A stretch of DNA of 64,000 nucleotides from Candidatus Sericytochromatia bacterium (GCA_035285865.1 JAYKHS010000015.1:1-64000), one strand, 5' to 3'. Shown: positions 750 to 7,410, numbered from the stretch's first letter. The notes: generated from the sequence alone by a model not told the origin. Translations and numbers: made by a program.

Positions 750-1382
750 ATGCTTCTGCCCATGCTGGCCCACGAGGTTCCTGCGGGACCTGCGATTTAC
801 GGGTATGGGGACGCCGAATGGCATCACTGGGAGAACGCGACGCTGTTCCCCTGGGACCCCATGGTCGCCTATCGTCCCGTCGAGGATGGCGAGATGGGGC
901 GCGTGCTGCGTGCGGACAGCAAGGCTGCTGCTTCGATGATTCGGCGGCAGGTCACGATCGATCTGTCGCGGACACCGCGGTTGACCTGGGCCTGGAAGGT
1001 TGCAGGCCGGATCGCCGGTGCGGACGAGTCCGTCCGACGGACGGACGATGCCCCTGCGCGGGTCTACGTGTTCTGGAACCTGCACCACCGCAACGACCTG
1101 GTACGGGCGCAAGGCCTCGGCTATGTCTGGGGTCAACGGTTGCCTGCCGGCACCGTCCAGCCCGATCCCGACTCGCCTCGGATCGGGATTTTCGTGTTGC
1201 GCAGCGTGGCGGATGGCGTAGGCGTCTGGCGCCGCGAGTCACGCAACCTGCTCGAGGACTTCCGTGCGTACTTCAAGCGTGAGCCCGCAGGTCCCGTGAC
1301 GCTGGTGTCCCTGCTGACGGACACGGACCAGACGGGGCAGCGCGCGACGGCCTGGTACGGGCCGATCGAGGCGGGGCGGTAG
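750..1382 (+). CDS. DUF3047-family protein
   Basis: Motifs P.LTWAWKV, DDAPARVYV.W, LGYVW, W..ESRNL.ED, LLTDTDQTG..ATAWYG. Start is uncertain (ORF opens at 660). Confidence 0.8.
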   Translation: MLLPMLAHEVPAGPAIYGYGDAEWHHWENATLFPWDPMVAYRPVEDGEMGRVLRADSKAAASMIRRQVTIDLSRTPRLTWAWKVAGRIAGADESVRRTDDAPARVYVFWNLHHRNDLVRAQGLGYVWGQRLPAGTVQPDPDSPRIGIFVLRSVADGVGVWRRESRNLLEDFRAYFKREPAGPVTLVSLLTDTDQTGQRATAWYGPIEAGR

Positions 1383-1630
1383 GGGGGCGATGGCTGAGGC
1401 CCCGACGTCATGGGCTTTTTCGGCATAAGGATTGCGTAGCAGGCAAGCCTTATGACGTCGGAAGGATCTTCCCGTGGACGGGACGGCGACAATCGACGTG
1501 TCACCACAATGTGACTGACCGACGAATTCGGGATCCGGTAACAGGACTCTACTCTGTCGTTTAATGCCCCACGTCTCCCCGCATGCTCGGGGTGTCACCC
1601 GACCGGGCCAAGTCAGAAAGGGAGTTCCCG

Positions 1631-2206
1631 ATGCACGTCACGCTCTTGCTCACCGAACGGCAATCCGAAACCATCTACAACTCGTGGCATATCTTCGAGG
1701 CCTACGACAACCCCTCGACCGTGAGCCTCGCCGGTGGCGTATGGTGCACCGATGACGGGGGTGTTCACCGACTCGCCAAGGACGCTGCCGGCAGGCATCT
1801 GCTGATCTACGACGGTCCACGGTCCGGCGCGGCTGCCTTCGCTGCCACGGGGGTCGACTTCGAGACCCTTCCCGTGCTGGCCTACCGGACAAGCACACCG
1901 GACCAGCCGTGGTGGCAGAAGCCCGTCGATGAAGAGAAAGAGAGAAATCTTGCATGGACCAAGACCGAGCTGTTCGAGCCGAAAATCTATGGTGAGCCGA
2001 CCAAGACCGAACAGGGCTTTCCCGGCGGCTTGCTGGTAAAGGTCTGGTGGGACGAACCTTATTACTTTCTGGCCTATCTGCTCGACGGCGAGCCCGTCGC
2101 CAACCAGGCGGCCTCGAATTACCTTCGCGAGTTGGCGGCGATTGAGGCAGACCCTGAGGCATTCATCAAGGAACTGCAGGAGTTCCGTCGGAGTCGGCAG
2201 GCTTAG
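1631..2206 (+). CDS. Hypothetical protein (191 aa)
   Basis: SD AAAGGGAG before ATG 1631; globular-protein composition; no family recognised. Confidence 0.75.
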   Translation: MHVTLLLTERQSETIYNSWHIFEAYDNPSTVSLAGGVWCTDDGGVHRLAKDAAGRHLLIYDGPRSGAAAFAATGVDFETLPVLAYRTSTPDQPWWQKPVDEEKERNLAWTKTELFEPKIYGEPTKTEQGFPGGLLVKVWWDEPYYFLAYLLDGEPVANQAASNYLRELAAIEADPEAFIKELQEFRRSRQA

Positions 2207-2357
2207 CCGGATATCTCGCGATCGCCTGCCCTGTTGACCACGACGGACCTTCACGGTGCGGGAGGCGTCTCCGCGAACGGCTTGATACCCACGGGCGCGA
2301 TCTGGAAGACGTGGCCCTCGTGAACGGTGTCTGCCGGCTTGCGGAGCTGGGAGGCGA

Positions 2358-3362
2358 TCAGCCCGTCCTCGAGGGCTGATCCGTCGTCTCTGTGCCATAC
2401 CGCTCCATCGTCGCCCGGATTCTCGCGCGCATGGTTTCCCGCAACTCCGCAGGTTCCAGCACTTCGGCATCCGGTCCCCACTTCAGAATTTCCCGGATCA
2501 GGTCCGGCCCCTCTGCTCCATAGGGAATGCGCAGGTCCAGCGAGCCATCCGCGCAGTCATCCATCTGCTGCTCGGCATGCCACCGCTGGTCCCTCACCCA
2601 CCGGGCCACGGCAGGCACGAATCGGACCCGCGCCCATTGTCGATCGAGACGCTTGTGGATCCCGAAGACCCCGGCAAGGTCCTCGCGGGGATCCTGACCC
2701 GACACCGTGGCCTCGCGGTCGAATCCCGGGCCGCGGCGCAGGACGCGGTCGATGCGATCCACGCTGAACATGCGCCGTTCCCGACGCAGGTGGCACCACG
2801 CGTACAGGTACCAGTTGCCCGCGTAGCTGTGCAACAGCAGGGGATCGAGCGATCGAACCCCTTCGCTGCCGCTGCTTGGTGCCCTGTAGCGCACGGTCAG
2901 CGTCTGGTCGTTCGCCAGAGCCTCGAGCAGTTGCACGAAGATCCCGGATTGCGGCGGATGGTGCTCGGGCGTCTCGACGACTATCCGGTCGGCAAGGCAT
3001 GCCCACGGTCCGGGCAGCAAGCGGGCCAGGGGTTCCCCGAGATGCTCACCGTCGCGCAGGGTCGCCGCCAGCAGGGCCAGCCCCCCGAGCAGGACGCTGC
3101 TGGCTTCGCTGGCCAGCCAGGCCGGGGGCAACTCGGCGGCGACACAACCCGGCGGGTACCAGTAACCCTTGCGGGATGCGTCATAGGCGATGGGCGCACC
3201 CAGTTGGCGCTCGAAGCGTTCTATGGTGCGCCGGGCCGTGTCCACCGAAACCCCGAAGGTGCTGGCCATCTGGGAAGGCCGCGGAAATGTCCCGGCCTTC
3301 AGGCGCTCGTTGAACCATGCGAACCGGGCCCAGAGGCCCGCATCACCCTCGCCACCCTGCAT
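2358..3362 (-). CDS. WYL-domain transcriptional regulator (HTH-WYL-WCX, YafY/PafB-like)
   Basis: N-terminal wHTH (MASTFGVSVDTARRTIE...YDASRKGYWY), WYL core (YAGNWYLYAWCHLRRERRMFSVDRI) and WCX tail (ILKWGPDAEVLEPAELR). ATG 3362 is the likely start within the 1208-aa track ORF. Confidence 0.92.
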   Translation of the reverse strand: MQGGEGDAGLWARFAWFNERLKAGTFPRPSQMASTFGVSVDTARRTIERFERQLGAPIAYDASRKGYWYPPGCVAAELPPAWLASEASSVLLGGLALLAATLRDGEHLGEPLARLLPGPWACLADRIVVETPEHHPPQSGIFVQLLEALANDQTLTVRYRAPSSGSEGVRSLDPLLLHSYAGNWYLYAWCHLRRERRMFSVDRIDRVLRRGPGFDREATVSGQDPREDLAGVFGIHKRLDRQWARVRFVPAVARWVRDQRWHAEQQMDDCADGSLDLRIPYGAEGPDLIREILKWGPDAEVLEPAELRETMRARIRATMERYGTETTDQPSRTG

Positions 3363-3443
3363 GACCTGAAGCCTAGCACGAACCCTGGTGAATCCTGCCC
3401 CAGGTCGTGCCGGATGTTGGGATTGCAAGCGAGGAGGCCGGTG

Positions 3444-5363
3444 ATGACCGAAGAGATTTTGACAGGCAGTCCCATCAGGGATGCCGCCCTGCTGCGCTTG
3501 ATGGTCATCGAACGCATCCGGACGGCGACCACTCCCGATCGGGCCGCTGCCGAGGCGGCCATGCGAGCCCTTTGCGATTACCTCGCGGAGCCCTGTCCCG
3601 TGGTGCTCTGGTTTCCTTCGCCGCTGATGGCCGCGATGGCCCACGGCCTGCTTCGCGAGATGACGCGGCGGGGTGAGGCTTGGAGTCGCCACGTGGTGGC
3701 CATGGCCGCGGCTGAGGTCCGTGGGCCCGTGGCGTGTCCCCCGGAGCTCGCGGCCCTGCTGCCCGGATCCCTGCCGTCGACCGGCTGGCGGGACCTTGGC
3801 GAAGAGCTGTGGGGCCCGGCTGCTTCGGAAGATGCCGCACACGCCCTGTCCCCTGAGGTCTGGCGCGGCGTCTGGAAGCGCCTCGCGACCGAACTCTGGC
3901 ATCAGGCGTGGGATGCAGGGCGCACGCTGCCGGAGCCGGGGCCATTCGTGGGCGGTTGGCAGGCATTGGAGCTGGATCATCGCCTGCGCCGACTCGAACG
4001 TCGGGTCCGCGACCTGCTGGGCGGCGAATCGGGCAATCCCCGGGATGGGGTGCATCGACTGGTATGGCAACATCTGACCGAGTTCGTGGGGGCCGCTTCG
4101 GGGGACGTCCTGTGGCCCGAGCCTGCCGAGGCCATGGGCCACGTGACGATGCCCCACGCCTGGGCTTGGCTCGACATCGTGACGGAGGCGGAACTGTCCG
4201 CGGAGCCCGAAGCGCAGCATCTGCTCGGCATCCTGCGCGTCCTTTCCCGCGCTGGTACGTGGCGCATTGCGTGCAAGCACGTGTGGTTCATGGCGGACCC
4301 GCCCTGCCAGATCAGTCTGGAACCCGGGCATGAGGCCGCATTGCTCCACGCCGAGCGCGACGCGGCGCTGCGCTACGCCGACGGCCACGTCCTGCACGCA
4401 TGGTTCGGTGAACGGGTGCATCCCCGGTTCGCGAACCTTCCTGCCCGCATGACCTGGGAGGACGTCGTCGGTGAACGTGAGGTCGCGAGGCAGCGCGCGA
4501 TGCTGGGCATGCTTCAGCCCTCGGAGTGGCGGCGCGCCACCGTGCGCGAGGGCGTGGGCTGGCACGAACCTGCCCGGGGTCGGTGCCAGGTCCTCGAGGT
4601 CAAGCCTCCGGGGCACTCGGGCCGGCCATGGAACGTGCTCGAGACGGCACGTCCGGGCTCCGGCCTTCGCCAGCGCATCCGATTGCCCGGCGATCTGATG
4701 GAGGCACGTGCCATCCGGGAGTGGTTGCTTGGCCCGGATGGCGAGAACGATCCGGAAGGGGCCGAGGAAGCGGCCGCGGCGGTACCGATGTCGGCAGATA
4801 ACCACGAGGAGGTCAGGACCATGGGACAGGAGAGCACGCGCAAGCGCCGGGGGCGGCTCGAGGCAGCCGTTCGACAGGCGGTGGCGGCGGCGATGCAGGA
4901 TCCGGTAAGGGAGCGTCATTCCATCGGTGAATCGGAGCAGGAGCGCGACATGCTCATCCACCGGATAATCGAGGGACTTCGCGATCCAGCGAAACGTCAC
5001 GATGATCGCTTGGCCGAGTTGCTCGGGCGCCTGATTCGGATCACGGGACCCGACATCAACTGCTATCCGGGCCTGCCCGGAACGGCCTGTCATCGGGAGT
5101 GCTGGCTCTTCAGCATCGTGCCCTTGCACGGTGAACCCGAGTCCGATGCGTGCATGCGGTTCCCGGACCTCCTGCGCATCCTGCGGGATCACGCCGACAA
5201 GTGTCGCAACACCCGTCGCTTCATCGTCGTCACCGAAGAGTGGTCGGCGCGCGCATGGCACGACTGGCGGGACAGCCTGGCCGTCCTCGAGAGCCGGGGG
5301 ATCCGGATCGAGGTCTTCCTCTGGGCCGGTGCCGAGTTGACCCGCATCTCCACCCAGACTTGA
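3444..5363 (+). CDS. DUF6745-like protein fused in frame to a ~180-aa unknown C-terminal domain
   Basis: SD GAGGAGG at 3431-3437. Motifs DRAAAEAA, VVLWFPSP, LH...DAALRYADG..LHAWFGERV and RIRLP...EA..WLLG resemble DUF6745. There is a second SD and ATG at 4806-4823. Confidence 0.7.
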   Translation: MTEEILTGSPIRDAALLRLMVIERIRTATTPDRAAAEAAMRALCDYLAEPCPVVLWFPSPLMAAMAHGLLREMTRRGEAWSRHVVAMAAAEVRGPVACPPELAALLPGSLPSTGWRDLGEELWGPAASEDAAHALSPEVWRGVWKRLATELWHQAWDAGRTLPEPGPFVGGWQALELDHRLRRLERRVRDLLGGESGNPRDGVHRLVWQHLTEFVGAASGDVLWPEPAEAMGHVTMPHAWAWLDIVTEAELSAEPEAQHLLGILRVLSRAGTWRIACKHVWFMADPPCQISLEPGHEAALLHAERDAALRYADGHVLHAWFGERVHPRFANLPARMTWEDVVGEREVARQRAMLGMLQPSEWRRATVREGVGWHEPARGRCQVLEVKPPGHSGRPWNVLETARPGSGLRQRIRLPGDLMEARAIREWLLGPDGENDPEGAEEAAAAVPMSADNHEEVRTMGQESTRKRRGRLEAAVRQAVAAAMQDPVRERHSIGESEQERDMLIHRIIEGLRDPAKRHDDRLAELLGRLIRITGPDINCYPGLPGTACHRECWLFSIVPLHGEPESDACMRFPDLLRILRDHADKCRNTRRFIVVTEEWSARAWHDWRDSLAVLESRGIRIEVFLWAGAELTRISTQT

Positions 5364-5471
5364 GCGGCGGGGTCCCGGCGCTGCCTGCGCCGACAGGCCT
5401 ATGGCCGGTGGCTTCCCTCGCCAGTCCGGCGGGTATGCTATCCGCGAGCCATTCACGATGGAGTGACCCGC

Positions 5472-6270: not shown

Positions 6271-7410
6271 TCACGCCACGCCGCCGTATGTGGATCCCGA
6301 GGAGTTGGGCGGCGTCGCCTCCGTTTCCTCGGGGGATTCCGGAACTGGGGCAACAGGCGGTTCCACGGGTGCCGGAGCTTCGGGCTCTGCCGGAGGTGCG
6401 GGAGGAGCCGGAGGCTCGGGTGCCGCGGGCGGGGCTGGTGGCGCGGGAGAGGCCGGAGGCTCGGGTGCCGCGGGCGGGGCTGGCGGCGCGGGTGAAGGAT
6501 CCTCCTCCTCCTCCTCCGGTTCCTCCGCGACGGGCTCCTCCTCTACCGGTTCATCGATGACCGGTTCTTCCTGGACGGGATCTTCCTCCTCCTCGACCGG
6601 AGGCGCCGGAGGCGCAGGTGGCGCCGCCTCTCCCAGCCACTCGGGCAGATCCAGGCGACCGTCGCCATTGGTGTCCTTGCTGGCCAGCACATCGCCCTGA
6701 ATTTCCTTGCCGGACAGGAATCCGTCGCTGTTCCGCTCGTAATCCGCGAACTGCTTCTCCAGACGCGAGCGCTCGCGCGCCGCGACGAACTCGTCCTTCG
6801 ACACGCTGCCGTCGGCATCCTTGTCCAGTGCAGCCAGATCGAACTTCGCGGCTTCCTTGCCCGTGAGCACGCCGTCCTTGTTCCGGTCATAGGCATCGAA
6901 GCGCGCTGCAAAGTCCACGTTCCGCTGGTTGTAGCGGCGTAGTTCGCCTTTGGCCACCACGCCATCGCCGTTCTCGTCAGCTTTCTTGACTTTCGCTGCT
7001 TCCTTGCCCGTCAAGACGCCGTCTTCGTTCTTGTCGAAGCGCTTCATCTGCTTGTTGGTCTTGACACCGTCCCGGCCAAGCTTGAACTCTTCCTTCGTGA
7101 GGGCCTCGTCGCCGTTGCGATCCCAGCCTTCGTGCTTCTTGCGGATCTCCTTGCCGGTCAGGACGCCGTCGTTGTTCTTGTCGAGCTTGGCGAAGCGCTT
7201 GTCCTCAAGGGATAGACCGCTCGCCTTGCCCTGCCCGCCGGCGGCCTTGCGCTCGTCGGTCGCAGCCTTCCCGATTGCAGCTTTCCCAGGCGCTGCCTTG
7301 TTCTCGGCCTTTGCTGACTTGGTAATATCAGGAGCCTTTGCTCTGGGGGCAGAGGCCGTCTTGTTCGCCTTGCCACCGCCGCCACCCTTGCCGTTGATCT
7401 TGCCTGCCAT
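6271..7410 (-). CDS. Multi-EF-hand calcium-binding protein with Lys/Ala-rich N-terminus and Pro/Glu-rich tail
   Basis: Eight EF-hand-like loops, e.g. DKNNDGVLTGKE, DKNEDGVLTGKE, DRNKDGVLTGKE, DKDADGSVSKDE, DTNGDGRLDLPE. Confidence 0.85.
   Translation of the reverse strand: MAGKINGKGGGGGKANKTASAPRAKAPDITKSAKAENKAAPGKAAIGKAATDERKAAGGQGKASGLSLEDKRFAKLDKNNDGVLTGKEIRKKHEGWDRNGDEALTKEEFKLGRDGVKTNKQMKRFDKNEDGVLTGKEAAKVKKADENGDGVVAKGELRRYNQRNVDFAARFDAYDRNKDGVLTGKEAAKFDLAALDKDADGSVSKDEFVAARERSRLEKQFADYERNSDGFLSGKEIQGDVLASKDTNGDGRLDLPEWLGEAAPPAPPAPPVEEEEDPVQEEPVIDEPVEEEPVAEEPEEEEEDPSPAPPAPPAAPEPPASPAPPAPPAAPEPPAPPAPPAEPEAPAPVEPPVAPVPESPEETEATPPNSSGSTYGGVA
6407..6492. repeat. 45-bp tandem duplication (about 2 copies) encoding PAPPAPPAAPEPPA
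   Basis: Unit GCCGGAGGCTCGGGTGCCGCGGGCGGGGCTGG(T/C)GGCGCGGG at 6407 and 6452. Confidence 0.85.

Follow-up and report, generated by a model that had tools for sequence, protein, structure and literature searches.

SiwR, which with PafBC and DriD belongs to the activators of wHTH-WYL-WCX architecture that respond to single-stranded DNA (ssDNA), activates its neighboring genes after genotoxic stress and controls adjacent genes through an intergenic region of about 60 bp, according to PMC10693628. BrxR and CapW share this architecture and are repressors found in defense islands, and PMC9122601 puts 48% of BrxR homologues near defense systems. Operons in which a WYL protein regulates an ADP-ribosylglycohydrolase and a phosphatase are described in PMC9503650, and inactive restriction endonucleases are proposed in PMC12839542 to act as nucleotide sensors in defense. 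Here, these systems are compared with a locus at positions 2358 to 5363 of a 64,000-nucleotide stretch of DNA from Candidatus Sericytochromatia bacterium (GCA_035285865.1 JAYKHS010000015.1:1-64000). This stretch, referred to below as the window, opens contig C15 of a 2.8-Mb genome assembly (G000) that is 83% complete. In it, a WYL regulator faces a 639-amino-acid (aa) open reading frame (ORF), P0001, which is a chimera of two protein families in a single frame, DUF6745 in front and an unnamed family, called NCYPG here, behind. We hold with moderate confidence that the accessory cassette found here carries a PafBC-like WYL protein that likely switches on a species-specific DUF6745-NCYPG fusion as stress cargo. 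The unit that recurs elsewhere is a WYL regulator with an NCYPG-family gene, and the DUF6745 fusion is a local arrangement.

The initial annotation described a complete HTH-WYL-WCX gene about 80 bp head-to-head from an uncharacterized ORF, less than 2 kb from an IS256 end, beside an orphan gene and at the edge of a gene block. This layout is borne out. The WYL and WCX domains of the 334-aa regulator score above the Pfam cut-offs (E 2.8e-19 and 4.1e-17, respectively), with a weak N-terminal HTH; the two start codons are 81 bp apart; and the 639-aa ORF is uninterrupted and preceded by a ribosome-binding site (RBS), GAGGAGG, at 3430-3436. The genes that follow it are BaxI-1, EF-hand, and RF3 (Pfam). 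The features are as follows.

1383..5429, no strand: accessory cassette of 4,047 bp, GC 0.666, between the DUF3047 gene and the BaxI-1 gene
1631..2206, plus strand: orphan ORF of 191 aa, inside the cassette and convergent with the WYL gene
2358..3362, minus strand: HTH-WYL-WCX regulator of 334 aa (Pfam), nearest by sequence to PafBC (activator type)
3363..3443, no strand: divergent intergenic region of 81 bp, presumed shared promoter
3444..4751, plus strand: P0001 residues 1 to about 436, divergent, apparently full-length DUF6745 protein
4752..4931, plus strand: linker of about 60 aa, containing the internal RBS (4806-4813) and the ATG at 4821
4932..5363, plus strand: P0001 residues about 497 to 639, member of an unnamed family of about 147 aa with the motifs NCYPG..C, H...C, and TD.W

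The fused open reading frame and its variation

The front half of P0001 is related to DUF6745. Pfam gave a match to PF20530 over residues 251-355 with E 2.5e-5 and 24.1 bits, thus under the gathering cut-off of 27. A profile of our own, made from 22 DUF6745 proteins, scored P0001 at E 9.7e-11, and hhalign aligned residues 240-431 with DUF6745 at a probability of 78% (E 1.7e-5); by these two measures, homology to the core of the family (LHAE..A..DG and the C-terminal beta region) is present. The N-terminal motif of DUF6745 was placed at residues 28-60 by MAFFT alignment only, and the motif CPST..H is altered to RPGS..Q. No small His-rich gene turned up in the 83%-complete assembly (best E 0.98); such a gene is a common but not universal partner of DUF6745, adjoining it in 21 of 40 other loci. 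The initial description of the ORF as DUF6745-like stands, below the cut-off, for the front half, and the rest is a second, unnamed family in the same frame. A literature search found no publication naming DUF6745. A single-sequence structure model of the whole of P0001 was unusable, with a predicted local distance difference test score (pLDDT) of 40, and a fold search from it was meaningless.

Searching exhaustively with residues 460-639 returned 77 matches, consisting of the protein itself, three repeat artifacts (P0005, P0009, and P0069, dropped before the counts), and 73 relatives. These relatives are small: 70 of the 73 are at most 200 aa long, and the median is 147 aa. The alignment and profile used below (A1) contains the window domain and 69 of the 76 matches, 70 sequences in all. 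Also dropped before counting were G613, a duplicate of L037, and G1125, which is nearly identical to G617, as well as the G053 match, which has three stops. No Pfam family covers the 70 aligned members, and a word-index search with the C-terminal part of P0001 found no relatives. A literature search found no publication describing the family, and supplements, which lay outside that search, may list it unnamed. Viral pattern scans gave three loci, none of them matching A1, and no phage match; one plasmid record matched. The window domain clusters with the standalone proteins P0003 and P0004 (support 100/98) in a 31-row tree.

The DUF6745-NCYPG fusion was found only in the window's species. P0001 had no match among 60 relatives, word-index searches with its N-terminal part and with A1 among longer proteins each returned only P0001 itself, and no DUF6745 was present in the four longest nonartifact matches of the C-terminal domain that were scanned. 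The A1 word-index search also missed P0021, a 375-aa member of the family, and so counts only weakly against other fusions. In L056/L176, L055, and P0021, the small domain is joined to other partners, either an HExxH-type N-terminal region (488 aa, and a similar-looking 375-aa case) or a Nif11 leader (262 aa).

Sequencing runs from other strains show that the cassette varies as a unit. Run X4 contains a 148-bp contig, at depth 33, that connects 1382 to 5430 and thereby gives an allele without the cassette; it has 30 letters on its short side and about 70 other letters between the two positions, and the join depends on this single contig. Its depth matches that of the flanking contigs of X4 (35), and the cassette contigs have a depth of 10-13, contig depth not being equal to the share of cells. 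In run X2, other sequence follows after 1383. Together, these two observations mark 1383-5429, with the orphan ORF, the WYL gene, and the fusion, as a replaceable block. Its GC content is like that of the genome, and no integrase gene is present in it. The IS256 end is indeed close to the WYL gene (1.9 kb), yet it is incidental because it lies outside the cassette and three other runs differ before 684. It is a Transposase_mut fragment (Pfam) within a repeat of 457 bp with which the contig starts and which also opens contig C22 (97.6% identity), so that it marks an assembly break. The three runs differ at 458-683, the stretch that separates the IS end from the DUF3047 gene's 5′ end; it looks strain specific, and the start of the DUF3047 gene may be altered. 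On the other side of the cassette, 6271-7410 encodes an EF-hand-rich protein with a Pro/Glu/Ala tail, which adjoins BaxI-1 in all three sister species examined and has a 45-bp repeat-length variant in X4. The orphan ORF had nothing above the Pfam cut-off and no match in NCBIfam, PADLOC, or PHROG.

The fusion itself is maintained. The 639-aa ORF is intact in runs X2-X5, from two other studies, at 95-99%+ identity, and contigs of X2 and X3 cross the fusion junction without a gap. Among the four runs, 35 places vary, 24 of them synonymous and 11 nonsynonymous, with no stop and no indel. The ratio of nonsynonymous to synonymous variation (pN/pS), calculated without correction for transition bias, was 0.07 for the DUF6745 core (residues 231-430), 0.11 for the C-terminal domain, and 0.26 for residues 1-230. 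In the linker (residues 431-496) it was 0.63, on three variants, one synonymous and two nonsynonymous. Both halves of the ORF are under purifying selection, and neither looks like a pseudogene.

These data bear on a possible, though doubtful, alternative, which is compatible with WYL control: two cargo genes merged neutrally when a stop codon was lost, and the halves act independently, the rear one from an internal start. A strong RBS, GAGGAGGT, at 4806-4813 precedes an in-frame ATG at 4821, with a further in-frame ATG at 4950, and the C-terminal domain may also be produced alone from 4821. This would fit a family that is otherwise standalone, a fusion confined to one species, and a linker with no clear constraint. 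However, the junction is free of stops and indels in the runs of both other studies, in one strain the final base of the internal RBS (4813) is altered, and three linker variants are too few to judge.

NCYPG-family genes beside WYL genes

The neighborhoods of NCYPG-family genes were surveyed at 19 distinct loci, and a WYL gene was found within 7 kb at six of them. In four cases the two genes are directly adjacent, either head-to-head as in the window (L041 and L173) or with the NCYPG gene directly downstream of the WYL gene (L174 and L175). At the remaining two, the NCYPG gene is two genes downstream of the WYL gene (L038) or the WYL gene is in a divergent cluster (L053). WYL genes were counted in 15 of the genomes (39 matches); there, five Pfam-confirmed WYL genes lie within 7 kb compared to 0.15 expected under a uniform null, which overstates the enrichment because WYL genes and island genes tend to cluster in any case. 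The linked WYL proteins are mostly 20-30% identical to each other, except for one related pair at 76%, and the WYL-linked members are scattered on the family tree (seven changes, at least three of them forced). This means that the link between NCYPG and WYL genes arose repeatedly. DUF6745 was not found at any of the 19 loci (by a profile check within 1.5 kb for L173-L175).

Other neighbors of the family include PD-(D/E)XK and HNH genes, AbiEii/AbiE pairs, MBL hydrolases, tandem AAA ATPases, and a DUF6079/BrxC-like ATPase. The NCYPG gene is beside a DSP phosphatase in two of the 19 loci and beside an ADP-ribosylglycohydrolase in one. Near family genes, additional genes for DNA polymerase III alpha, or pieces of them, occur at L033 and L053 (Pfam) and at L173 and L174 (by eye), hinting at DNA-damage cassettes.

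The trio of WYL gene, fusion, and orphan ORF is not conserved, and no second copy of the trio or of the fusion was found. An orthologue of the WYL protein (55% identity) occurs in one of 46 relatives, the sister species G001. There (L014, G001:C18, 43-2652) it faces a 130-aa gene without known function, which has a strong RBS, and precedes an HExxH protein of about 300 aa, which has no match in Pfam and which BLAST did not relate to the P0021 N terminus; the same regulator thus has different cargo. The orphan ORF also has an orthologue in G001 (42%), on a different contig from the WYL gene and beside a DEAD/DSHCT helicase. As for DUF6745, a WYL gene lies within about 4 kb in only one of 40 loci, which were drawn from 26 further genomes in the phylum. 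At that locus (L098, G004:C14, 2392-6167), a different WYL gene is directly upstream of a His-rich partner and DUF6745 pair, which is followed by a PQQ-type beta-propeller gene. G004 is from the same bacterial family as the window's genome, so that DUF6745-WYL adjacencies are seen twice in one bacterial family.

The initial annotation read the locus as a two- or three-component system, a view that absence of WYL genes beside homologues elsewhere would have undermined. A link to WYL genes beyond chance was found, but it runs through the C-terminal half; DUF6745 shows it in just the one locus of 40, and neither a fixed system nor another fusion or trio emerged. A dedicated two- or three-gene anti-phage system, made up of the WYL protein, a fused DUF6745 sensor and effector domain, and the orphan ORF, is therefore unlikely. 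In its favor are the presence of three genes in one cassette, the frequent defense genes among the family's neighbors, the G004 locus, where a WYL gene immediately precedes the partner-DUF6745 pair, and the proximity of 48% of BrxR homologues to defense systems (PMC9122601). Against these stand the lack of a second trio or fusion, the dispersed orthologues in G001, a WYL protein that is not of the BrxR/CapW repressor type, and the 39 of 40 DUF6745 loci without WYL within about 4 kb. Moreover, PADLOC 2.0 matched no family for P0001, its halves, or the orphan ORF, in agreement with the initial statement that no known defense system is recognizable. Since the NCYPG family is repeatedly found beside unrelated WYL regulators, it is likely stress-induced DNA-damage or defense cargo and not a fixed anti-phage system.

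Fold and conserved residues of the C-terminal domain

An AlphaFold model made with the alignment gave the C-terminal domain a pLDDT of 82.9 and an alpha/beta core. In a VIA structure search of 48,161 chains, the top whole-domain match was BstYI (Z 5.8, root mean square deviation 3.9 Å, 111 residues), and BglII (Z 5.6), OkrAI (5.5), and BamHI (4.8) also matched, every fold match being below Z 8, the reliability line of the tool. The matches to restriction enzymes have deviations of about 4 Å over 109-116 residues and 4-11% identity. Across the 70 sequences, N539, Y541, P542, C549, and C587 are invariant, and H583, T590, D/E598, and W600 are nearly so. The PD-(D/E)xK residues were not found in these sequences: the strands expected to carry them, as assigned from the secondary structure of the AlphaFold model, read NCYPG and A-x-F-x-S-L. 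From the weak fold match and the conservation, we infer a catalytically degenerate restriction-endonuclease-like fold with a putative Cys/His metal site (C549, H583, and C587), which is predicted to bind metal and nucleic acid and not to cut. A sequence search of the PDB with A1 had a best E of 0.015, to an unrelated protein; an Atlas search gave no usable match, and the leads for P0006 were all below 0.8. Deaminase rows in the Foldseek output were weak and were not adopted.

A bolder reading would make NCYPG an undescribed class of Cys/His metal-dependent effectors on a restriction-endonuclease scaffold, recruited independently by WYL sensors in several phyla and joined here to DUF6745, with its variable middle as recognition surface, in a single-chain inducible anti-phage sensor-effector. 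This is improbable. We also think it quite unlikely that the C-terminal domain is an active nuclease or metal enzyme with a noncanonical Cys/His site, that is, a toxic effector restrained by the WYL protein. In favor of this view, five residues are invariant and H583 and D/E598 nearly so, type II restriction enzymes are the best full-domain structural matches, and one of the 70 members weakly matches NucC (PADLOC, E 0.009). However, the strands assigned to PD-(D/E)xK from the model carry no conserved acidic or lysine residue, and many family members have no visible regulator or antitoxin.

The regulator and its likeness to known systems

Among solved structures in the PDB, the nearest relatives of the WYL protein are PafBC (E 1.7e-15) and PafC (9e-10), with CapW and BrxR at just 0.004-0.02; DriD-sized WYL fragments match it only at E 0.04. 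Its WYL strand reads canonical NWYLYAW, and RWHVR, described in PMC11662680 as the CapW/BrxR repressor motif in this strand, is not present. An activator is the better guess for this protein, because PafBC and PafC match best, CapW and BrxR score far lower, and RWHVR is absent. In the ligand loop, RMFSVDRI aligns with RVFRLSRM of PafBC, whose two loop arginines (beta4/beta5) are described in PMC6789036; of the three arginines in this stretch, the flanking ones are kept and the middle one is replaced by serine. A metagenome scan with the WYL protein gave six distant loci (21-26% identity), which were used only as profile seeds. Two more WYL-domain genes are present in the window's genome (C8:26953-27162 and C18:22897-23094).

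The 81-bp divergent region contains no sigma-70 consensus and no GACA-N5-TGTC box, and an apparent palindrome in it was not significant. The box was present in one of 19 upstream regions of NCYPG-family genes compared to 1.1 expected. L041 has two clean inverted repeats at 510-550, in the gap that separates the family gene from the WYL gene, and a GACA-N5-TGTC box is among them; repeats of this type were not present in the other family loci tested. Many BrxR homologues also have no inverted-repeat operator, as PMC9122601 reports. It is very unlikely that unrelated island genes came to lie head-to-head here by chance, without WYL regulation: although the WYL orthologue in G001 has different neighbors and no operator was found, the family independently adjoins unrelated WYL genes, twice head-to-head as here, and 81 bp is scant space for two independent promoters.

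If a PafBC-like protein switches on the fusion as stress cargo, ssDNA arising from damage or from phage restriction or infection would bind the WYL dimer, by analogy with PafBC, DriD, and SiwR (PMC10693628 and PMC6789036). The ssDNA-bound dimer would then activate the divergent promoter and induce the fusion, whose C-terminal domain, going by the model, might serve as a metal- and nucleic-acid-binding accessory in a DNA-damage or defense response.

Several points weigh against this explanation. First, no WYL gene was seen at 13 of the 19 family loci, eight of the 19 having less than 1.5 kb of sequence on one side. Among the six members linked to WYL genes, L174 and L175 are distant (E 1.6e-9 and 2.6e-8), and the WYL gene of L041 is truncated by the contig end and was recognized by homology alone. 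The uniform null adds to this. Second, a serine stands in place of one PafBC loop arginine, so that the regulator may differ from PafBC in its ligand and polarity, and the 81 bp yielded no operator, the best ungapped inverted repeat there being equaled by 229 of 300 shuffles. Third, an acetyl-CoA carboxylase fragment equals the top VIA score (Z 5.8) over 75 residues, and Foldseek with the domain model found nothing at E ≤ 0.001 among PDB and viral structures; the Z scores short of the reliability line belong here as well. Finally, the pN/pS values are uncorrected.

As a local fusion, the locus is of less interest as a system than for the NCYPG family to which it points. WYL regulons are a productive source of new damage-response and defense genes, and this family is small, foldable, and unnamed, with invariant Cys/His residues and a recurrent place beside unrelated WYL genes, so that it could be taken into biochemistry and phage challenge at little cost.

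Comparison with the described systems shows likeness and difference in each case. Relative to DUF6745 with its His-rich partner, P0001 is under the Pfam cut-off, has RPGS..Q for CPST..H, lacks a detected partner, and reads on into another domain, but its motifs align from the N terminus to the C-terminal end of the family. The C-terminal domain shares its topology and its best whole-domain matches (Z 4.8-5.8 over about 110 residues) with the BamHI/BglII/BstYI fold, whereas it has invariant Cys/His in place of PD-(D/E)xK residues and no cognate methylase in the cassette. The enzymes of the WYL-regulated ADP-ribosylglycohydrolase/phosphatase operons are not in the cassette, and NCYPG is no constant member of such operons, although the family sometimes adjoins these enzymes. 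BrxR and CapW have the same architecture as the window regulator, which also lies on an accessory cassette; unlike them, it has no RWHVR, matches them weakly in the PDB (E 0.004-0.02), and has no recognized defense system in its cassette. Finally, the PafBC/DriD/SiwR group differs from the window in that the latter has no significant palindrome, a serine for a loop arginine, and cargo that is neither DinB-like nor a known repair gene, but it is with this group that the window regulator shares its domain order, the canonical WYL motif, and its best PDB matches, PafBC and PafC.

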